The position numbers were made by a program, and so were the translations under genes. Below the pieces are notes generated by a model. The model saw only the letters and a list, made by a program, of their open reading frames with translations. It ran no database searches and was not told where the DNA came from. From an uncultured Desulfobacteraceae bacterium (lineage in GTDB: Bacteria; Desulfobacterota; Syntrophobacteria; BM002): a stretch of DNA of 64,000 nucleotides. The DNA lies in NCBI GenBank assembly GCA_964346905.1, contig CAYFXH010000001.1, positions 1,280 to 65,279 on the forward strand, written 5' to 3'. Positions 37,092 to 56,299 of the stretch are shown piece after piece. The first letter of the stretch is position 1; each line of letters opens with the position of its first letter.

Positions 37092-37691
37092 ATGATAAAA
37101 GCTATCATTTTCGATTTCGGCCGGGTCATCTCGACCCAAAAGCCGCCATCCCTCTTCAGCGGCTATGAAAAGGATTTGGGACTCCCCCCCGGAACGCTCA
37201 ACCCTATTATGTTCGCTAGCCGGGCCTGGCAAGATACCTTGATTGGCCACAAGACCATTGAAGAGTTCTGGGACGAAATTGGGCCCAAGCTTGGACTGAA
37301 TACTCCCGAGGAAATTGAGGAGTTCCGCCGTCGGTACCGGGCTGATGAAGCGGTTAACGAGGGTGTGCTGAATCTACTCCATCGGCTGCACGGCCATTAC
37401 AAGCTGGCGGTACTCTCCAATGCACCGCCTGGCCTGGGCCAATGGCTGGGCGACTGGGGGATGCTCCATCTGTTCGATGTGCTGTTCTGCTCCGGAGACG
37501 AAGGCGTGGTAAAGCCAGAGCCGGCTGCTTTTACTATCACCCTAGAACGACTCGGCGTGGAGCCCAATGAAGCAGTGTTCATTGACGATACACTGGAACA
37601 CGTGGAGGCAGCCAGGACACTGGGGCTGCACGGAATACTGTTCACCACCGCAGAAGCTCTGGAGGCGGAATTAGATGGCTTACTTGCTTGA
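37092..37691 (+). CDS. HAD-superfamily hydrolase (subfamily IA)
   Basis: 199 aa; motif I IKAIIFDFGRV (DxD-type), SNAPP motif II, GDE...D motif IV region. Confidence 0.75.
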   Translation: MIKAIIFDFGRVISTQKPPSLFSGYEKDLGLPPGTLNPIMFASRAWQDTLIGHKTIEEFWDEIGPKLGLNTPEEIEEFRRRYRADEAVNEGVLNLLHRLHGHYKLAVLSNAPPGLGQWLGDWGMLHLFDVLFCSGDEGVVKPEPAAFTITLERLGVEPNEAVFIDDTLEHVEAARTLGLHGILFTTAEALEAELDGLLA

Positions 37692-37712: not shown

Positions 37713-38363
37713 ATGGCGACCGTTGTGAGCAATGACCACATTAAAATTGATCGGTTAGAATTGGGGCCGTTCGGCACTAATGGGTACATCTTAACCTGCC
37801 AAAAGACACAAGAGAGTGTGGTGATTGACGCCCCCGGCCAAGTCGACAGAGTCCTGGAAGCGCTGGAGGATACACACCCCCAATACATCCTAATTACTCA
37901 TGACCATTTTGATCATGTGGGTGGTCTTTCCCGGTTGAAATCAGCCTTGAACGTTCCCGTCGCTGCCCACCCTGCAGATGGTGACGGGCTTCCCCTACCT
38001 GCGGATATTCTCCTACATGACGGTGAGGTACTATCCTTTGGAGCCAGAGAGCTTACGGTGTTGCACACACCGGGCCACACTCTGGGAAGCATATGCTTGC
38101 TGACCGGGAATTACTTGATTGCGGGGGATACGTTATTTCCGGGAGGTCCGGGTAAAACCCAATCACCCGCAGACTTCCGGCAGATTATTGAATCCATAAC
38201 CCAGAAGATTTTCACATTGCCGGACAACACCCACGTGTATCCCGGACACGGGGAAGCAACAACGGTCAAGGAGGCAAAAAAACAGTACGAGGTTTTCTCA
38301 ACCCGACCGCACGATCCGGATCTTTGCGGGGATGTGGTTTGGGATAAATCGCAGAGCGCATAG
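37713..38363 (+). CDS. MBL-fold metallo-hydrolase
   Basis: 216 aa; ITHDHFDHVGG (HxHxDH) and downstream His/Asp ligands. Confidence 0.8.
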   Translation: MATVVSNDHIKIDRLELGPFGTNGYILTCQKTQESVVIDAPGQVDRVLEALEDTHPQYILITHDHFDHVGGLSRLKSALNVPVAAHPADGDGLPLPADILLHDGEVLSFGARELTVLHTPGHTLGSICLLTGNYLIAGDTLFPGGPGKTQSPADFRQIIESITQKIFTLPDNTHVYPGHGEATTVKEAKKQYEVFSTRPHDPDLCGDVVWDKSQSA

Positions 38364-38499: not shown

Positions 38500-39195
38500 T
38501 TACCAACCTATTACCACTCGGTGAAAACCTTCCGCCAGTTCAAAATCCTCCCCTTCAGCCATCTCCCTGCACCGCTCTCTCAGCCAATCTTCAGGGTCCG
38601 GATTGGGGAATCCCTGTACCTGGCTCTGGTGGCAACGTAGGGCCGCAATTTTAAGATCAAAGGTATCGGTGATGTCCGAGCGATAGTTAATGTCTTCCGC
38701 CGCCCAGAATAAGATCTCATCTACATTGTGAGGCTCCAAACCTTCCTCTAACAAATCAGGGTAGGCAAGATGATCCCGAGAGTACGGGAAAACTGCATCG
38801 AGAGTAACCTGCCCGGCAATGCGATGGTCGCGATGCCAGAGGTAACGACGGTAGGGATCCGAGGTCACCACGATCCTGGGCTGGTACATGCGTATAAAGC
38901 GAACGATCTGCTTACGAAATTCCGGCGTGTCTTCCAACTCCTGATCCGGGTATCCCAGGAATATTACTTCTCGGACCCCAAGGATCTTGGCCGCAGCCTG
39001 TTGCTCCTTTTTTCTGATTTCGGCCAATTGTTCAGGTTTGAGGCTCCGGTCGCTGGTTCCCTTGTCGCCATTGGTGCAGACAACGTAGACAACCTGCTTT
39101 CCTTCTCTGGTCCAGCGCGCTACTGTTCCTGCCACCCCGAATTCGGCGTCATCCGGATGAGCTGTTACCACCAGTACGTCCGTTGCTTTCGTCAC
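38500..39195 (-). CDS. PIG-L/LmbE-family N-acetylglucosaminyl deacetylase (MshB/BshB-like)
   Basis: Start chosen at GTG (Val71 of ORF 38500..39405) with AGGAGG RBS 6 nt upstream, giving 232 aa; signature VLVVTAHPDDAEFGVAGT and downstream His/Asp. Confidence 0.75.
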   Translation of the reverse strand: MTKATDVLVVTAHPDDAEFGVAGTVARWTREGKQVVYVVCTNGDKGTSDRSLKPEQLAEIRKKEQQAAAKILGVREVIFLGYPDQELEDTPEFRKQIVRFIRMYQPRIVVTSDPYRRYLWHRDHRIAGQVTLDAVFPYSRDHLAYPDLLEEGLEPHNVDEILFWAAEDINYRSDITDTFDLKIAALRCHQSQVQGFPNPDPEDWLRERCREMAEGEDFELAEGFHRVVIGW

Positions 39196-39250
39196 AACGA
39201 ACCTCCTAAAAAGTCGAGACTCGAGTAGTTCAATGAAATACCGAATGATG

Positions 39251-40459
39251 TTACCTGAGTATGGCTGTGTATTCTTCCAGCATAGCGGACGCCACATTTG
39301 CCCAGCTAAATTGGAGGACCGACGCGCGAATTGCTTCAGCGGATAGTCCGTTGGAGTTCGAGATAAAAGCTTCGATACCGTTTGCCAGTAAACGGGGAGA
39401 ACCATTGGTCACCAGATGTCCTGTCTCACCTTGGCGGAGGATGCTCTCCATAGCCCCCACCTTCGTTGCCACCACCGGTGTGCCAGAGGCGAGCGATTCC
39501 AAGGCCACCAGCCCAAAGCTCTCGTAGTAAGAGGGCACAACCAAGACATCTGCGGCATTGTAGTACGGCGGCAGGTTATCCTGTTCGATCCTTCCCACAA
39601 AGGTCACGGAATCCTGAATACCCAACTTCCAGGATAATCTTTGGAGGTTTTGCGACTCCGGTGTATGATGGCCATCGCCACCGACAATTACCAGTCGAAG
39701 CCTTTGATGATTCAGAAGGCGGGCCACGGCCTCAAGCAATCGGTCTATTCCCTTCAATGGCGCAAATCTGCCCACGAACAACACAATCGACTCATCCTCC
39801 GCAAAACCCAACTGCTCTCGCGCCCTCGCTTTGTCCCATGGGCGGAAAAGATCCAGGTTGACACCACACGGTACAACGCCAATTGTCGCAGAGGACGCCC
39901 CATAGTGTTGCATTAGATGGTCTCTTTCTCTGTGGGTGGCGACGAGAATGCGGTTACAATTATGTGCCAAATGCTGTTCGGTGGCTGTACGCAGTTCGGG
40001 TTCTTTCTCCGCACCAACTGTACTGTTCTTTACCGCGCCAACAGTATGGAACATGAAAAGATGAGGGACTTCCCAGCGTTCATGGGCCCATTTCCCCACC
40101 CGACCGGAGAGCCAGTAGTTACTATGTACAAGGTCATAGTCCAACGACTCGTATGTTCTAAATCTTTCCAGCTCCCGGAAAAAATCAGGCAGATAGGGAT
40201 AAAGTGCCAATTTGTTCATATCACCGTTGTTCCCGGCTTTTAGATGAATGAGTCGGACGTTCTCACATAGTTCAACTCTCTGAGTATCAGCTGCATTACT
40301 GAGACGCGTATAAATGTCGACCAAATGGCCGCGGTTTCCCAGCTCCCGGGCAAGCTCACGGACATAGACACTCATGCCTCCGGTGTCTTTTGTCCCTAAT
40401 TCTCCTAGCGGACTTGAATGAACGCTCAACATTGCAATTCTTAACTGTTCTGCTTCCAC
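39251..40459 (-). CDS. GT4 glycosyltransferase of the MshA/BshA (N-acetylglucosaminyl-transferase) family
   Basis: 402 aa; IAMLSVHSSPLGELGTKDTGGMSVYV, DLVHSNYWLSG, HTVGAVKNS, PSYYESFGLVALESLASGTPVVA align block-for-block with Corynebacterium MshA (from memory). Confidence 0.75.
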   Translation of the reverse strand: MEAEQLRIAMLSVHSSPLGELGTKDTGGMSVYVRELARELGNRGHLVDIYTRLSNAADTQRVELCENVRLIHLKAGNNGDMNKLALYPYLPDFFRELERFRTYESLDYDLVHSNYWLSGRVGKWAHERWEVPHLFMFHTVGAVKNSTVGAEKEPELRTATEQHLAHNCNRILVATHRERDHLMQHYGASSATIGVVPCGVNLDLFRPWDKARAREQLGFAEDESIVLFVGRFAPLKGIDRLLEAVARLLNHQRLRLVIVGGDGHHTPESQNLQRLSWKLGIQDSVTFVGRIEQDNLPPYYNAADVLVVPSYYESFGLVALESLASGTPVVATKVGAMESILRQGETGHLVTNGSPRLLANGIEAFISNSNGLSAEAIRASVLQFSWANVASAMLEEYTAILR

Positions 40460-40503
40460 GTGCGCTACCTCTCGATTCAGTGCTTGTTTACCGTTCAGAT
40501 TGT

Positions 40504-41481
40504 TCAGAGTTTAATCTGGCATCTATACAAGGTAACAGGTTTACCTCCCAACCGATGTTTGTAATCCTCTGCGCCTTTGAGAAAATCGTACCTCTCTTTT
40601 CCTCTCTGAATGCTTTCTTGAATGGTGAATACCTTACTGAGCAGACCCACGTTCAGCGAACTGAATCTGCCGTCATACCCATTGTTGTAAAGATATATCG
40701 TCGAATTATAATCAAAACACATCACCGCGGCTGCAGGTGTCCCGTCAAGTTCGAGGATAAACAGTTGCAATAGCTTGAGCGTTGCCATTGTCTCGGCCAG
40801 TGACCGAAAAAAAGAAGCCATCTGACTAGTCATAAAAGCTGCCTTATCGGCTCGACTCAATCCAAACAGCGCCAAAAAGGTGTCCATTTCCTCCAGGACT
40901 TCTCTTACATCCTCCACAACCCGATATCTGATGTCTGCAGCCTCATCTAATCTCCTGAGTTTTCGTCTCACTTCGTGCCGCTGTTTTCCGGTCAACATGT
41001 GCAAGAATTCATCCCAGCTTGCCGGCAACTCTAACTCCAGGGTAACATCCTCGGGATCGCAAAAAACCTCGCACTCCAGCGCTTTGGCCACGTTGACAAA
41101 ATCGGTGAGCACTTTAGAGTCGGCACGTACGGAGTTCAGATCCAGGTGAGTGATACCCTGCTCCCTTAAATGATTGATGAGAATCTCAGAAAACTCCCCT
41201 ACCCTCCCAGGGGTGACGATGAAATCTTGGTAATCGCAAACATCAGGATCGCCCATGAAGCGGGCCTCTCTTCCTTCCAGCAAAAACGGCGCGATACCGA
41301 TCACTTCTTCCCCGTCTTTCACCGCGTAGAGGGAGGGAGCCAATTCAGCACTGAATACGTTCCACCATACCTCCAGCCAGCCGGGCAAAACAAAGAGACA
41401 ATCCCACTCCAGGACATATCCCGGATCTAGCCAGTAAGAGGCGAGATTTTCAAAGGTCTCTTCAGTTACGGTATATGCCAT
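40504..41481 (-). CDS. FemAB/CelD-like tandem-GNAT acyltransferase (Acetyltransf_6-like)
   Basis: Start Met27 of ORF 40504..41559 (GAAGGTGA RBS). ~326 aa with two GNAT-like halves; architecture typical of aminoacyl-tRNA-dependent transferases (FemX/FemAB) and CelD; no precise motif verified. Confidence 0.5.
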   Translation of the reverse strand: MAYTVTEETFENLASYWLDPGYVLEWDCLFVLPGWLEVWWNVFSAELAPSLYAVKDGEEVIGIAPFLLEGREARFMGDPDVCDYQDFIVTPGRVGEFSEILINHLREQGITHLDLNSVRADSKVLTDFVNVAKALECEVFCDPEDVTLELELPASWDEFLHMLTGKQRHEVRRKLRRLDEAADIRYRVVEDVREVLEEMDTFLALFGLSRADKAAFMTSQMASFFRSLAETMATLKLLQLFILELDGTPAAAVMCFDYNSTIYLYNNGYDGRFSSLNVGLLSKVFTIQESIQRGKERYDFLKGAEDYKHRLGGKPVTLYRCQIKL

Positions 41482-41574
41482 GGTCACCTTCGGAGTATTG
41501 GTACTGTAACGATTGCGGATTGCGGAATTTGGTGATTTCCCTGCTTTGCAATCCTTCATGCTGAAATCTGTAAT

Positions 41575-42006
41575 CTACAAGCTGACCTTGCCGCCGCTTC
41601 TAAAATCTCCACCACCCGTACCAAGTCTTCCAAGGGAGCTGCTATTGGCTCTCCCGTCAACAAATGATCGGCTAGGTTCCGATGAAAAAGATAATGCTCT
41701 CGTTTGGGCAATGCCAGTTTTTGGGTGATAAGTAGTACCTACTGGGATCGCATCATGGGAATGCCAGTAGCCACAGGGGTGCGCAAAACTGCCCACGAAG
41801 GTCTCCATGTAAAAGAGGTCGCCAATCAGCCCATGAGCGAGTGCTTGTTTAATCGCCAAGTAGTCCACGTCCCACCGCCGGTTTTGGTGGCAGCTCAGAT
41901 GCACCCGCTGTTTTTTGGCCATCTCCACCATGGCGGCTGTTTCCTTTTGGCTCAATGCCAGGGGCTTTTCACAGACCACATGCTTCCCTGCTGCCATCAT
42001 TTGCAA
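41575..42006 (-). pseudogene. Gfo/Idh/MocA-family oxidoreductase remnant (N-terminal Rossmann region and C-terminal domain missing)
   Basis: ORF begins at AAGKHVVCEKPLAL, the motif that normally lies ~90 aa into Gfo/Idh/MocA proteins. Only 75 nt separate it from the upstream gene. C-terminal 40 aa are low-complexity, suggesting frameshift. Confidence 0.5.
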
Positions 42007-42080
42007 AGATAAGTTTGCATGGGAGTTCGGTGGGGTGGCTAATCATTTTCCTTTAACCCTCACAGTTCCTGGTTTCTTGC

Positions 42081-43334
42081 CTATGACTTCAGTCGCCACT
42101 GCGCGCCATCTCCAGTATCCTCAACTATTATGTCTGCTCGCTGGAGGCTGTCGCGGATGACGTCGGCTTCTTGCCATTGTTTCTTTTGTCGGAACTCCTG
42201 GCGCAACTTGAGTAGCTCTTCCACGAGAGGGGCAAGACAATCAGCCCTATTTTTTGGAGAAGCCTCAAGTCTCATTCCTAAAATGACTATCAAATCTCGA
42301 AAAATTTCTTTAGCTTGGGAAATGAATTCCTCGTTTTCATGATCCTGCTTGGCTCTCCAGATAACCCGATCAAGCTCCAAAAGAGCGTTGGTGGCTTCTT
42401 TCGGTTCGTCTTTTTCGAGGCCGAGCCGAAAGGTGTTTTCGATTGCATGAATGGTATCCCAGAAGGACTCTGCATCAACATCAGAGGTAGGTTTGAAAAT
42501 CGCTTGCTTTGGGGTTGTCGGTTTCCACTCCTTACCCATCTCTCCTCCACGGAGAACATCAAGAGAAAAACGGTCACCCTTTTCAAAGACCAACTCAGCT
42601 CCCCGACAACGTAGGGTCGCAGTGCCGAGTCCCTTAATGAGAGCTTCTTCTTTTTCAAAATCAATGAGGCAGGCCGTATGTTCATCCAAGCCAAAAATGG
42701 ATACATCCTTGGGCAAGAGGGACTCGAGCTTGCGAAAGCGCGATTCACCCATGAAACAGAAACGGGTGTCGTGAGTCCCACCTTCAGCGTTGTTCCAATG
42801 GGGAATCACCACCAGATTGAAGCCGAAGTGGTGGAGTATATTCATCCCCTCCACCCAATGCAGGTCTTCGCCCACCTTGTAAATCTCATAGACTGGGAGA
42901 GTGAAGCGTCCCAGGGTCAGGGCGGCAGCACTGGCAGCCACTAGGCAACCGCCGGATTCGATCTGCTTTATCAAGATTTCAGGTACGGGTGTTTGCTGCC
43001 ACTGGCGAAGGGCATACGTCGGACTTCCTGGGCCAATCAGAATAAAGTCGGCCTCCCGCAGCGTATGAAAGGCCTGCTCGGCTTCGTATGGTGTGATCCT
43101 CTCGTTTGACTGAAACGAGGCTGTTGACATGGGTTGTTGAACATGGATACGAAAATAATCCAAGGCTCTCTTGGATATCTGATCAACATTAAGCTGAAAG
43201 CCAGCCGGCGTATCGAGAAATACGGCTCGGGGATCTTGAGCAAATCCCGCCAGTAACTCCTTGTGAACTTCAACCATGGTTGCAGTGAGTTCACCTGAGC
43301 CCATGAGGGCGATAATTCCTTTCCTTGATGACAC
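42081..43334 (-). CDS. Fusion protein: peptidase S51/cyanophycinase-like (class I GATase-like) N-terminal domain + C-terminal tRNA-anticodon-binding region of cysteinyl-tRNA synthetase
   Basis: 417 aa. N-terminal IALMGSGE...FLDTPAGF...ILIGPGSPTYALR...GGCLVAASAAALTLG resembles the S51 fold. C-terminal ...LRQEFRQKKQWQEADVIRDSLQRADIIVEDTGDGAQWRLKS aligns with E. coli CysRS C-terminus ...[39 protein letters not shown] (from memory). No HIGH or KMSKS motifs present. Confidence 0.6.
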   Translation of the reverse strand: MSSRKGIIALMGSGELTATMVEVHKELLAGFAQDPRAVFLDTPAGFQLNVDQISKRALDYFRIHVQQPMSTASFQSNERITPYEAEQAFHTLREADFILIGPGSPTYALRQWQQTPVPEILIKQIESGGCLVAASAAALTLGRFTLPVYEIYKVGEDLHWVEGMNILHHFGFNLVVIPHWNNAEGGTHDTRFCFMGESRFRKLESLLPKDVSIFGLDEHTACLIDFEKEEALIKGLGTATLRCRGAELVFEKGDRFSLDVLRGGEMGKEWKPTTPKQAIFKPTSDVDAESFWDTIHAIENTFRLGLEKDEPKEATNALLELDRVIWRAKQDHENEEFISQAKEIFRDLIVILGMRLEASPKNRADCLAPLVEELLKLRQEFRQKKQWQEADVIRDSLQRADIIVEDTGDGAQWRLKS

Positions 43335-45208: not shown

Positions 45209-45478
45209 GGCGCCCCCCTTGGGTTTGAATTGTTATGAATCTCTTCTGTTCCTGGTTGCCAGGGCTACTAGGTGAGTTGGCCCATGACCCCGTGGTAATG
45301 CAAACCGCATGCCGACCTCCCTCAATGCATGATCTTTTGGATGGTCCGAAGACCTAGAAGTCCATGGCTTTACCAGGCAGGATGCACCAGCTATTCCCCC
45401 CTCTACGATGACCTGGTTTGCAAATGTGCTGGTCTGCTTTATTATTAAAGATACTCGAGAAGACAGGTACAATTGACA

Positions 45479-46522
45479 ATGTCGAAATTTCCTCTCGTAA
45501 TAGCTTTTTTAGCCGCGGTTTTGTTTGGCGGAGCAACACCCGCAAGTAAGGTATTGTTGCGGGCTTTGCCAACATTTCAGCTTGCAGGGCTCCTCTACCT
45601 CGGCGCTGCCCTCGGCGTCCTACCCCTGATCGCCCATGAGGGGACGTTTTCGTGGCCTTGGAGTCTTGACCGCAAAACCGGTCTCCGACTTGTTGGAGCA
45701 ATCAGCTTTGGGGGTGTGGTGGGCCCGGTGTTCTTACTTTTCGGCCTGCGGCTCGCCTCGGCTGCTTCGGTATCTTTGTGGCTCAATTTGGAACTCATTG
45801 CCACTGTACTTCTCGGCTATCTCGTTTTTCGCGACCAGCTAACCGCATACGGATGGGTTGCCGCCATAGGAACGCTTGCAGCAGCGACGCTATTGTCCGC
45901 ATCCGAGGGATTGGCCGGGGTGAAGGCTGGTCTGCTCGTCACCCTGGCCTGTTTTTGCTGGGGCTTGGATAATCACCTCACCGCCCTGATCACCGGTATC
46001 ACTCCGGCACAGACCACCTTTTGGAAGGGCTTGGTTGCGGGTATGGTGAACCTCGCCATTGGAACAAGATTGGACCCCTACACTGCGACAATCTCTTTGA
46101 CAGCCGCGGCCATCGCCGTCGGTATTCTTTCCTATGGAATAAGTATCGTGCTCTATATCACTTCGGCACAAAAGCTGGGTGCCACGAGAAGTCAAATCAT
46201 TTTTTCCAGTTCGCCATTTTTGGGGGTCATCCTGGCTGCAATTTTCCTGAGAGAAACCATTTCTGTGGCTCAAATAGTGGCCTCACTGGTTATCATTACT
46301 TCCCTTGCGTTTCTGTTCTTCGAGCAACATGCGCACGTGCATCATCATGACGCCACGGCACACGAGCATTGGCATCGCCATGACGACGGCCATCACGACC
46401 ACGTATTCCCAGGAATGCCTCGGGCTATATATCACAGTCACTGGCACGAGCATAAAGCCATGACCCATAAGCATGCTCACCGGCCCGATCCATATCACCG
46501 GCATAAACACGGGGAAGACTAA
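45479..46522 (+). CDS. EamA/DMT-superfamily transporter with His-rich C-terminal tail
   Basis: 10 TM-like segments, then HAHVHHHDATAHEHWHRHDDGHHDH...HSHWHEHKAMTHKHAHRPDPYHRHKHGED; ORF-track frame begins at TTG 45473. Confidence 0.65.
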   Translation: MSKFPLVIAFLAAVLFGGATPASKVLLRALPTFQLAGLLYLGAALGVLPLIAHEGTFSWPWSLDRKTGLRLVGAISFGGVVGPVFLLFGLRLASAASVSLWLNLELIATVLLGYLVFRDQLTAYGWVAAIGTLAAATLLSASEGLAGVKAGLLVTLACFCWGLDNHLTALITGITPAQTTFWKGLVAGMVNLAIGTRLDPYTATISLTAAAIAVGILSYGISIVLYITSAQKLGATRSQIIFSSSPFLGVILAAIFLRETISVAQIVASLVIITSLAFLFFEQHAHVHHHDATAHEHWHRHDDGHHDHVFPGMPRAIYHSHWHEHKAMTHKHAHRPDPYHRHKHGED

Positions 46523-46921: not shown

Positions 46922-47698
46922 ATGTGGCAGACAGAGATGAAGAAGATGGTTGGGTTGCTTGTGACGGTACTGTGGCTGGTCTTTTTTGCTCACCAGACGG
47001 CAACCGCTCACTTCGGTATGATCATTCCTTCAGATGAGATGGTTATGAGGGGGGAAAGCCCGAATGTCGCCGTGCAGCTCATGTTCTGGCACCCCTTCGA
47101 AGGTCAGGGAATGGAACTGGCGAAGCCCGCACAATTTGGCGTGGTGGCAAACGGCAGCAAGCAGGACTTGTTACATACGCTCAGTTCTAGAAAGATCAAA
47201 GAACATACCACCTGGCAGACTACCTATCGAATCAGGCGGCCCGGACTTTATATTTTTTACATGGAGCCGCAGCCTTACTTGGAGGCTGCGGAAAATTCTT
47301 ACATCATTCATTACACCAAGACCGTAGTTGCAGCTTATGGTAAGGACGAAGGCTGGGATGAACCCATCGGCCTGAAAACCGAAATCGTCCCCCTAAGCAG
47401 ACCTTTTGGCCTTTACGTGACCAATGTGTTTCAAGGGGTGGTTATGCGCAATGGGAAACCCGTGGCCGGTGTCGAGGTGGAAGTCGAGTACTTCAATGTG
47501 ACTGGTACGTATTCCGCCCCTACGGACTACATGGTGACCCAGACCACTAGGACCGACCCGAACGGGGTTTTTACTTACGCGGTCCCCAAGGCTGGCTGGT
47601 GGGGTTTCGCCGCCATCACCACTGATGATCACCAAATCAACGGTAAAGATGTGGAAATTGGCGCTGTGCTATGGGTCAAGTTCCATCTGATGCAATAG
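46922..47698 (+). CDS. DUF4198-family periplasmic component of Ni/Co ECF transporter (NikK-like)
   Basis: 258 aa, signal peptide, adjacent and upstream of cbiM in same orientation; start may be Met6. Confidence 0.55.
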
Positions 47699-55204: not shown

Positions 55205-56299
55205 TCAGTGGCTGCTGCTGGAAATGGCTTCCACAAGAAAATCACGGATTGTGGAAGCTGTTTGCTCCCAGCTGGGAAATGTGTCAAAACGTCGTCGTGC
55301 TACAAGGCTCAAGCGGAGCAGTTCGTCCCGATTGTTGAGCAATCGCTGCAACAGGTGGACGAGTCCGCTCAGGTCTCCCGGCTCGAAGAGATAACCGTTC
55401 TCGCCGTGGCTGACAATCTCTTCTGCTCCACCGCGGCGGCATGCCAGGGAAGGAAGCCCGTAGGCCATTCCCTCCAGGTAGACGATACCGAAGCCTTCGT
55501 AGGAGAAAGGCATGGCAATGACGTCGCTCTCCTTGAGAAGATGCGTTAGCTCACCGTCAGTGAGTGATCCCAGTAGCCGCACCTTCCCATCAACACCCAG
55601 GGTTGTGATTCGTTGCCGAACCGTAGCTACGTAACCCACGTCTACCTCCAAGCTGCCAACCACAGACAACTGCCAGGACTCGTGCCGGAGCGAAGCCAGG
55701 GCCGTGAGCAGATCGTCCAACCCCTTTCGAGAGATCACATTACCCACAAAGGCGAGGTTTAAGGGTCTGTCCCGCCGGACGCGATGGACGATCTCCCCCT
55801 TCTCCATAGCCGGTTCCAGACGATTCCCGCCAGGGTGAGCAACGACCCCGAACCGGGGACCACCGCACAATTCCTCCACCGAGCGACGGGTAGCCTTGCT
55901 GTTGAAGACAAATCCATCCACCGAGGTGAGATAGGAGCTTTCCACAGCCTGGTAGAGGATCCGGGCTGGAAAAGACCACTGCTCCCGGCAACGGAGGTGG
56001 TGGACGATGGAAACCACGGGGTAGGACACCCGGGGACGTAGTCTTCTGTTAAGCAGGAACAGAGAGGGGTGATTCAGCTCATCCTGGAGAAGCACGTCCA
56101 GCTGGGCCCGGGCCAAACGTTTCAGCCACTGGGCAGAGAGATTGTGCGTCAAATGTCTGGCATAAGAGTGTAAGGGCATGGAGAAGACTTCTACGTCGTC
56201 CCCACGTTTCCTGAGGTGCTCCACCAGCTTCCGATCGTAGAGATACCCTCCGCTCACGGACTGCAGAGATCCATAAATTACGATGCCAACTCGCATCAA
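55205..56299 (-). CDS. GT4-family glycosyltransferase
   Basis: 364 aa; C-terminal EGFGIVYLEGMAYGLPSLACRRGGAEEIV...NGYLFEPGD (E-x7-E GT-B motif). Confidence 0.75.
   Translation of the reverse strand: MMRVGIVIYGSLQSVSGGYLYDRKLVEHLRKRGDDVEVFSMPLHSYARHLTHNLSAQWLKRLARAQLDVLLQDELNHPSLFLLNRRLRPRVSYPVVSIVHHLRCREQWSFPARILYQAVESSYLTSVDGFVFNSKATRRSVEELCGGPRFGVVAHPGGNRLEPAMEKGEIVHRVRRDRPLNLAFVGNVISRKGLDDLLTALASLRHESWQLSVVGSLEVDVGYVATVRQRITTLGVDGKVRLLGSLTDGELTHLLKESDVIAMPFSYEGFGIVYLEGMAYGLPSLACRRGGAEEIVSHGENGYLFEPGDLSGLVHLLQRLLNNRDELLRLSLVARRRFDTFPSWEQTASTIRDFLVEAISSSSH

Follow-up and report, generated by a model that had tools for sequence, protein, structure and literature searches.

A cyanophycinase-like (S51) serine hydrolase fused to a cysteinyl-tRNA synthetase tail, and its putative place in a sugar-thiol-like operon of the Desulfobacterota

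The recycling of synthetase domains and the use of charged tRNA outside translation are both known themes, and MshC, which is derived from cysteinyl-tRNA synthetase (CysRS), keeps the CysRS catalytic domain without the anticodon-binding domain and is ATP-dependent and tRNA-independent (PMC2922099). Charged tRNA is used for non-ribosomal amide or ester formation by FemXAB/MurM, L/F-transferase, MprF, VlmA and the cyclodipeptide synthases, which have GNAT or class-I-synthetase-like folds, with no covalent serine intermediate and neither an S51 domain nor a borrowed anticodon-binding domain. Here we describe a gene in which the other half of CysRS, the anticodon-binding region, is joined to an S51 serine hydrolase domain, and for which the same use of charged tRNA is proposed. 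It is located in a stretch of 64,000 nucleotides (the window) of an uncultured Desulfobacteraceae bacterium (GenBank assembly GCA_964346905.1, contig CAYFXH010000001.1, positions 1,280 to 65,279 of the forward strand). MshC and the fusion protein resemble one another in their CysRS-derived origin and in their ties to an MshA/MshB-type glucosamine pathway, in which cysteine is joined to an amino sugar. However, the two incorporate complementary halves of CysRS with no common aligned region, and the fusion protein contains no MshC or BshC domain. It likewise lacks the GNAT-fold twin domain of the Fem-type transferases, a GNAT protein being encoded instead by a separate, adjacent gene.

Domain architecture of the fusion protein

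The fusion gene (42081..43334, (-) strand) starts with a GTG codon, just 5' of which lies the purine-rich GGAAAGAAG, and ends with the stop codon at 42081-42083, with a single open reading frame (ORF) filling the interval exactly. Homologues as long as the 417 amino acid (aa) product align with it from residue 1, which supports this start. The protein comprises an S51 (peptidase E/cyanophycinase-like) domain (aa 1-266; 42537..43334, (-)), a flexible linker (~aa 267-284; 42483..42536, (-)) and a CysRS-derived anticodon-binding region (aa 285-417; 42084..42482, (-)), made up of a four-helix DALR_2-type bundle and a C-terminal alpha/beta CysS_C domain. The architecture is that of an S51 serine hydrolase and a CysRS anticodon-binding region with no synthetase catalytic domain, and the underlying matches lie far beyond chance. 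A first AlphaFold model, based on 26 close homologues, was mediocre (predicted local distance difference test score, pLDDT, of 74), while a second, based on a diverse alignment (pLDDT 91.5; predicted template modelling score 0.78), was used for fold comparison. The linker is variable in both alignments, and aa 267-282 form the sole part of the second model with a pLDDT below 50.

A CysRS-type tail of ~110 residues had been recognised in a preliminary description of this DNA, and the database and structural comparisons bear this out and extend it to ~135 residues. The Pfam CysS_C domain (PF23493) is matched at aa 367-414 (E 3.7e-10; 40.2 bits, cut-off 23) and DALR_2 weakly at aa 313-356, while the fusion protein covers positions 362-464 alone of the 466 in the NCBIfam cysS model. 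BlastP comparison against the canonical CysRS of the same genome (contig C79, 506 aa) aligned aa 282-417 with residues 353-506 (31 % identity; E 4e-13), and a profile of 82 diverse family members matched four CysRS crystal structures over ~130 residues (E 1.6e-15 to 3e-11). The modelled tail could be superimposed on tRNA-bound Escherichia coli CysRS (1U0B_B; aa 292-416 on 332-461, 27 % identity, Z 8.5), with a high root-mean-square deviation (rmsd) that is consistent with a hinge joining the bundle to the alpha/beta domain. The C-terminal region of E. coli CysRS (1U0B/1LI5), with 27-31 % identity, has a homologous bundle and alpha/beta domain, but the Rossmann catalytic domain, zinc site and stem-contact fold of CysRS are missing from the fusion protein, in which the tail follows an S51 domain and a flexible linker. 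Pfam and NCBIfam scans of the fusion protein gave no match to PF01406, the catalytic domain of class-I CysRS, and the HIGH/KMSKS core is absent, as had also been noted in the preliminary description. The tail is a true homologue of the CysRS region rather than an unrelated coiled coil, and the protein as a whole does not look like a plain peptidase E without any link to tRNA.

Anticodon recognition in E. coli CysRS, chiefly of G34, involves Arg427, Trp432, Asp436 and Arg439, as well as Arg423 via a water molecule (PMC13449415, PMC12684709). Residue-level alignment places R378, R382, W387, D391 and R394 of the fusion protein (codons within 42153..42203, (-)) at the positions of R423, R427, W432, D436 and R439, respectively, so that all five are kept (5/5). 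They are invariant among the close homologues, and in the 82-sequence alignment (40 % mean column identity) R378, D391 and R394 do not vary, with R382 retained in at least 90 % of sequences. In a genus-level census with a single genome for each of 36,145 genera, R378 was observed in 501/534, R382 in 495/516, W387 (as W, F or Y) in 522/528, D391 in 525/528 and R394 in 510/522 genera. That these contact residues in particular have been retained is the chief reason to suppose that the tRNA(Cys) anticodon is still recognised by the tail. Among family members with a divergent middle region, CysS_C was still present in 34/48, and neither another recurring C-terminal domain nor another synthetase tail on an S51 domain was found in the family. 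E. coli YqeB was considered as a control for non-tRNA use of the module and rejected, as it lacks CysS_C and has no similarity to the tail. The assembly contains a single tRNA-Cys(GCA) gene, and no tRNA gene or Rfam family was found in the 64-kb window.

The N-terminal domain had been described as a serine hydrolase of the S51/class-I-GATase-like fold, with a possible nucleophile elbow in the motif GGCLVAASAAA, and both proposals agree with the structural comparison. Peptidase_S51 (PF03575) is matched at aa 9-225 with 22.8 bits, below the cut-off of 23.9, which only some homologues exceed; the fusion family appears to be a divergent S51 subfamily. The closest relative in both structure and sequence is a peptidase of an acI-B1 actinobacterium, annotated as a "cyanophycinase-like exopeptidase" (PDB 6NQC), which was matched by phmmer (E 2.4e-5) and by the family profile (E 1.5e-13), and over which the model superimposes with a Z-score of 27.5 and an rmsd of 2.5 Angstrom (234 residues, 23 % identity). 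Foldseek comparison of the S51 domain gave an E-value of 1.4e-12. No paper on the function of 6NQC was found in a literature search. At ~250 aa, 6NQC lacks the CysRS tail as well as the PVYEIYKVG and HDTRFC motifs of the fusion family. The cyanophycinases CphB/CphE and PepE (MEROPS S51) have the same fold and Ser-His-Glu arrangement as the fusion protein (Z 23.6-24.2 for cyanophycinase; 20.6-22.4 for PepE), but share 14-19 % identity with no detectable sequence match and lack an RNA-binding module. These enzymes are exopeptidases which act on a free-amine N-terminal residue, with beta-Asp-Arg polymers or Asp-X dipeptides as substrates.

The Ser, His and Glu motifs of 6NQC all align with those of the fusion protein. 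The predicted nucleophile, Ser135 (42930..42932, (-); motif AASAAA), aligns with the serine of CSAGA in 6NQC and lies between strand 130-134 and helix 136-139 of the model, forming a nucleophile elbow. The predicted triad histidine, His179 (42798..42800, (-); VIPHWNN), and acid, Glu218 (42681..42683, (-); GLDEHT), align with VIPHFN and GIDEVT, respectively. In the genus census, Ser135 is conserved in 891/897, His179 in 900/900 and Glu218 in 870/894 genera, with the neighbouring Asp217 found in 873/897.

The fusion family, which is large and has no name of its own, occurs in 909/36,145 genera. Carriers include ~378 genera of Actinomycetota (Acidimicrobiia 222; Actinomycetes 135), ~369 of Chloroflexota, ~81 of Desulfobacterota, ~36 of Patescibacteriota, ~12 of Nitrospirota and a few others. 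Members are currently labelled "peptidase E", "cyanophycinase-like exopeptidase", "CysS/YqeB C-terminal domain-containing protein" or "hypothetical". Within the library that was searched, there was no paper on a fusion of an S51 domain and a CysRS tail or its tie to an MshA/MshB-like operon, nor on tRNA-dependent mycothiol or bacillithiol synthesis involving this family. One contig labelled as a Mycobacterium sp. metagenome-assembled genome (MAG; L103) encodes a fusion protein with up to 97 % identity to metagenome proteins, its taxon-labelled matches (up to 80 % identity) being MAGs of the Acidimicrobiales and Ilumatobacteraceae. This bin, which may be mixed, also contains MshC and MshA above the equivalog cut-offs.

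Genomic context of the fusion gene

The fusion gene appears to be the first gene of a mycothiol-like sugar-thiol operon, whose next intact gene codes for a Fem-like GNAT protein (PF13480, Acetyltransf_6; 40504..41559, (-)). The match of the latter to FemAB_like is weak (24.7 bits, under the cut-off), no significant match to a solved structure was obtained by sequence or profile, and no MshD model was matched at E 1e-5 or better. Its alignment reveals an invariant basic motif (R194 H195 E196 x R198 R199 K200), with R202 and R203 conserved in at least 90 % of sequences. The predicted complex of the fusion protein and the Fem-like GNAT scored 0.01, which is evidence for neither side. Downstream lie an MshA-like GT4 glycosyltransferase (39251..40522, (-)), which matches the MshA model TIGR03449 over its full length (366.8 bits; equivalog cut-off 462.5; next family 121 bits), and a PIG-L family deacetylase of the MshB/BshB-like type (38500..39198, (-); PF02585, E 1e-36), which scores 109 bits against BshB1 and 59 bits against MshB, both under the cut-offs. 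Two genes on the opposite strand converge on the operon. These include a metallo-beta-lactamase (MBL)-fold, glyoxalase-II-like hydrolase (37713..38363, (+); GSH_gloB, 99 bits), which repeatedly adjoins the operon in other genomes, and a HAD-IA phosphatase-like gene (37092..37691, (+)), found beside the cluster in several genomes. With an MshA-like GT4, a phosphatase, an MshB-like deacetylase and a two-domain GNAT in the place of MshD, the predicted functions of this operon mirror those of mycothiol synthesis. The cysteine ligase would be the missing step, and the protein with the CysRS tail seems to occupy its place in the operon.

The arrangement is conserved among related loci. A PF13480 gene lies within 5 kb of the fusion gene in 33/39 carriers in the score band of at least 60 % and in 33/57 carriers in that of 40-59 %, compared with 0/129 and 0/69 in the lower bands and 3/300 random places. 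Among the Desulfobacterota flanks, the order fusion gene, Fem-like GNAT (followed by the MshA-like GT4 and PIG-L) on one strand was observed in 13/20, down to 46 % identity. A species-representative set of eighty loci was divided into group A, which includes Nitrospirota and Nitrospinaceae, and group B (Actinomycetota, Chloroflexota, Rokubacteria and Saccharimonadales), and the same gene order was observed in 35/46 group A loci with sufficient downstream sequence and in 0/27 group B loci. Where the fusion gene of Desulfobacterota is unlinked, a cluster of MBL-fold, Fem-like GNAT and GT4 genes, with or without PIG-L, is found elsewhere in the genome. Furthermore, a Fem-like gene was present in 34/38 fusion carriers and 23/263 non-carriers in a sample of the phylum. 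The preliminary description had suggested a link to tRNA(Cys), and this link is strengthened by the five retained contact residues together with the operon shared with a Fem-like GNAT and MshA/MshB-like enzymes.

Absence calls are based on a genome that is 95 % complete. It contains three inositol-1-phosphate synthase genes and one tRNA-synt_1e gene, that of the canonical CysRS, and hence no MshC. No match to BshC (PF10079) was found, E. coli-type GshA was likewise not found, and the sole GshB-like match was a weak ATP-grasp.

Copies of CysRS were also compared among Desulfobacterota. Twelve Fem-like-positive carriers from six families, all outside a family designated f3, have one CysRS-like gene each, while three f3 carriers have an additional weak CysRS-like match (152-156 bits). 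Among Fem-like-positive non-carriers, an extra CysRS paralogue other than the CysK type was present in 12/19, as opposed to no more than 2/48 control genomes, the two types being judged mainly by reading-frame length, with domain searches confirming the examples examined. These extra paralogues are CysRS-GT2 fusions or second stand-alone copies. As they do not adjoin the Fem-like cluster, this displacement pattern is suggestive only. A plain count of extra CysRS copies was rejected as a signal, given a second copy in 18/48 controls; CysK-CysRS fusions are common regardless of context, and thus only the non-CysK-type paralogues carry signal.

The fusions of CysK/CysM (PALP) with a full-length CysRS, anticodon-binding domains included (for example L133:5075-7390 (+) and L137:1123-3471 (+)), have reading frames of ~770-820 aa and provide a second CysRS copy in about one third of the sampled Desulfobacterota genomes. 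Their composition suggests a channelling of fresh cysteine onto tRNA. A Desulfobacterota family with the Fem-like/GT4 pair and without the S51 fusion encodes a 728 aa full-length CysRS paralogue with a C-terminal GT2 domain (L132:6005-8191 (+)), followed by an ECF sigma/zf-HC2 gene. This CysRS-GT2 fusion could be another tie between cysteine activation and sugar chemistry. In some fusion-free genomes a zf-HC2 (ZAS-type) anti-sigma gene is located 5' of the Fem-like/GT4 pair (L123:7268-8835 (+); L130:10586-11476 (-)), with an ECF sigma factor annotated 5' of the same pair in L123 alone. By analogy, the ECF/zf-HC2 arrangement is reminiscent of SigR-RsrA, by which mycothiol genes are controlled under thiol stress.

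Candidate reactions of the fusion protein

The fusion protein probably acts on something attached to tRNA(Cys), as its retained contact residues and catalytic motifs suggest. Regarding the reaction itself, we tentatively prefer a transfer, in which a glucosamine glycoside may receive cysteine from Cys-tRNA(Cys) through Ser135, with or without the participation of the Fem-like GNAT. The tail would dock on tRNA(Cys), following which Ser135 would attack the cysteinyl ester at the 3' end of Cys-tRNA(Cys), charged by the single housekeeping CysRS, to form a Cys-enzyme intermediate. Transfer rather than hydrolysis would follow, with the fusion protein, either unaided or jointly with its Fem-like GNAT neighbour, handing the cysteinyl group to a free amine on a GlcN-inositol-type glycoside, the putative acceptor being built by the MshA-like glycosyltransferase, the phosphatase and the MshB/BshB-like deacetylase. 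In this way the fusion protein would substitute, by a tRNA-dependent reaction, for the ATP-dependent cysteine ligases MshC and BshC, which are absent from these genomes. The carbonyl attacked by S51 enzymes belongs to an N-terminal residue whose alpha-amine is free. Their geometry would suit an aminoacyl ester on tRNA, since this likewise presents the carbonyl of a residue with a free alpha-amine, and the proposal is chemically reasonable because the aminoacyl ester is an activated donor and a free-amine N-terminal residue is what S51 enzymes recognise. Some other serine hydrolases act as amino-acid-ester acyltransferases.

Several observations weigh against such a transfer. All characterised S51 enzymes are, to our knowledge, hydrolases and none are transferases, and the anticodon of a tRNA is ~70 Angstrom from its 3' end, a gap that the linker or a dimer would have to bridge. 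The genomes counted above are related and not independent, the Fem-like/GT4 pair also occurs where the fusion gene is absent, and the residues of the tail could be assigned in just ~58 % of carrier genera (~525 genera). Furthermore, the Actinomycetota make up ~40 % of carrier genera, and 12/12 of the Actinomycetota carriers examined, mostly Acidimicrobiia, have an MshC-like gene of ~380 aa in addition to a canonical CysRS, while a Fem-like gene was not found in the three Actinomycetota carrier genomes searched. In group B loci, an alpha/beta hydrolase gene is located directly upstream of the fusion gene in 11/27.

MshC is thus absent from the Desulfobacterota carriers and accompanies the fusion protein in the Actinomycetota, so that the fusion protein cannot be a simple MshC replacement everywhere. 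An MshA-like gene is present in 11/12 of the Actinomycetota carriers examined, and the MshA-like genes of Acidimicrobiia, whose genomes also have MshC-like genes, score in the same range of the MshA model as the GT4 in the window. In two Chloroflexota carriers a Fem-like gene is located elsewhere in the genome. The clades differ near the active site, with H188->L, N181->D and A133->F or L in the Actinomycetota and Chloroflexota, and their substrates may differ as a consequence. The family-wide activity must be self-contained, as would be that of a hydrolase or acyl-transferase directed at tRNA(Cys), and in the clade of the window this activity became part of a sugar-thiol-like operon.

A serious rival, though in itself unlikely, is a free-standing tRNA(Cys)-specific deacylase serving quality control or regulation rather than biosynthesis, which could remove wrong or damaged aminoacyl groups, such as oxidised or S-modified cysteine or an acidic analogue similar to the aspartate preferred by PepE, or cysteine from surplus Cys-tRNA(Cys). 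Such an activity draws on the same tRNA evidence as the transfer and agrees with the uniformly hydrolytic nature of the known S51 enzymes. The fusion gene lies away from the Fem-like/GT4 operon in the Actinomycetota, Chloroflexota and small-genome Patescibacteria, where its usual neighbour is another hydrolase, and this fits a self-contained housekeeping activity. YbaK, ProXp, AlaX and D-aminoacyl-tRNA deacylase would be the parallels, being hydrolases that act on aminoacyl-tRNA outside the synthetase, but these trans-editing factors have no homology to the fusion protein, originate from the editing domains of synthetases, in most cases do not recognise the anticodon and have no serine triad. 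What a deacylase leaves unexplained is the tight and phylogenetically broad operon link to biosynthetic enzymes in the clade of the window. CysRS is, moreover, highly accurate without editing, and the patchy distribution of the family would be unusual for a general quality-control factor. Sep-tRNA(Cys) was considered as a substrate of such a deacylase and rejected, as SepRS (TIGR00470) was not found in the 95 % complete genome and SepCysS (TIGR02539), the two together being the source of Sep-tRNA(Cys), gave weak generic matches only.

A further explanation, which we consider rather unlikely, assigns the ligation to the Fem-like GNAT as the true Cys-tRNA(Cys)-dependent ligase, with the fusion protein as an accessory for capture and presentation of the tRNA, or for proofreading or trimming. 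The two genes are immediate same-strand neighbours, and Fem ligases of the GNAT fold are well known to draw on aminoacyl-tRNA for non-ribosomal amide formation (PMC2922099). The invariant basic motif of the Fem-like protein could bind nucleic acid, and Fem-like-positive genomes without the fusion often have an extra CysRS paralogue. However, PF13480 proteins are not known to use tRNA, and this one has the weak FemAB_like match and lack of a solved relative by sequence reported above, while the near-invariant triad of the fusion protein argues for catalysis over mere presentation, and the fusion protein occurs without a Fem-like gene in the Actinomycetota. Very unlikely, in our view, is an ordinary S51 exopeptidase (a dipeptidase of the Asp-X or cyanophycin type) with a tail that now serves oligomerisation, regulation or the binding of a ligand other than tRNA and with a neighbouring operon that is unrelated or merely co-regulated. 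The annotation of family members as peptidase E or cyanophycinase-like exopeptidase, the tail-less peptidase 6NQC as the nearest structure and the differing context between phyla would all suit it. Nevertheless, it is difficult to see why the anticodon-contact residues should have been selectively retained in different phyla if RNA were not recognised, a whole 135-residue anticodon-binding region rather than just a small module has been kept, and the association with the operon greatly exceeds that in the random control.

If the tail does target tRNA(Cys), the fusion protein would add a new fold to the few non-ribosomal users of charged tRNA and a new recycling of a synthetase domain; we know of no S51 catalytic domain that uses charged tRNA outside translation. 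Were the transfer of cysteine to the glycoside correct, the fusion protein would represent the first aminoacyl-tRNA transferase with an S51 fold, and cysteine ligation in sugar-thiol biosynthesis would have a third solution, distinct in mechanism from the other two. That it constitutes a new enzyme class for cysteine ligation is possible, if somewhat doubtful, and we are similarly hesitant about the wider proposal that the Desulfobacterota, Nitrospirota and allies, which are anaerobes, may make a mycothiol-like thiol by means of an S51-fold Cys-tRNA(Cys) transferase that replaces MshC/BshC. The locus raises the questions of how cysteine is attached in bacteria with MshA/MshB-like genes and without MshC, BshC or glutathione synthesis, and of which protective thiol serves the sulfate reducers and their relatives. 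If the deacylase explanation were true, translation quality control would gain a new factor in the form of a deacylase dedicated to tRNA(Cys). With the family present in ~900 genera, one biochemical result would lead to the re-annotation of thousands of genes.

Additional features of the window and of carrier genomes

Between the fusion gene and the Fem-like gene lies the remnant of a gene for a ThuA-Gfo/Idh/MocA oxidoreductase (41580..42042, (-)), identified by tblastn with the intact genes of L001. It keeps aa 274-378 and 496-546 alone of the 557 aa protein, and the second gene of the pair (GFO) is entirely gone. The ThuA-Gfo/Idh/MocA and GFO pair is intact in L001 and in L019, which belongs to the same genus, indicating that ~2.3 kb of the operon was lost here or that the assembly collapsed. 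Gfo/Idh/MocA oxidoreductases were rejected as an obligate partner of the fusion gene, being near it in 15/39, 9/57, 12/129 and fewer than 3/69 carriers across the four score bands, from highest to lowest. The pair is an optional operon insert, of which a remnant persists in the window. Promoter and terminator scans gave results no better than those for shuffled sequence.

The boundaries of two operon genes differ from those of their reading frames. Homology of the MshA-like GT4 runs to 40522, 63 nucleotides 5' of the first in-frame ATG/GTG/TTG (40459) and overlapping the end of the Fem-like gene, which suggests an unusual start codon or translational coupling. Homology of the PIG-L deacetylase begins at ~39195, with the longest ORF extending to 39405. 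A second, distant GT4 homologue, with 30 % identity to the MshA-like enzyme, is encoded at 55214-55750 (-).

In freshwater Acidimicrobiia, the fusion gene is followed immediately downstream by the genes of a ZnuABC-type metal ABC transporter, which lie on the opposite strand (L108:9249-11946 (-); eight further loci are similar). CysRS chemistry is zinc-dependent. The transporter was not retained as a functional partner; it is confined to closely related genomes and was treated as probably reflecting inherited synteny. Within the window, an EamA-family transporter with a long His-rich C-terminal tail containing many H-x-H repeats (45473-46522 (+)) is followed by a DUF4198 protein (46922-47698 (+)), and these two look like a metal-handling pair.

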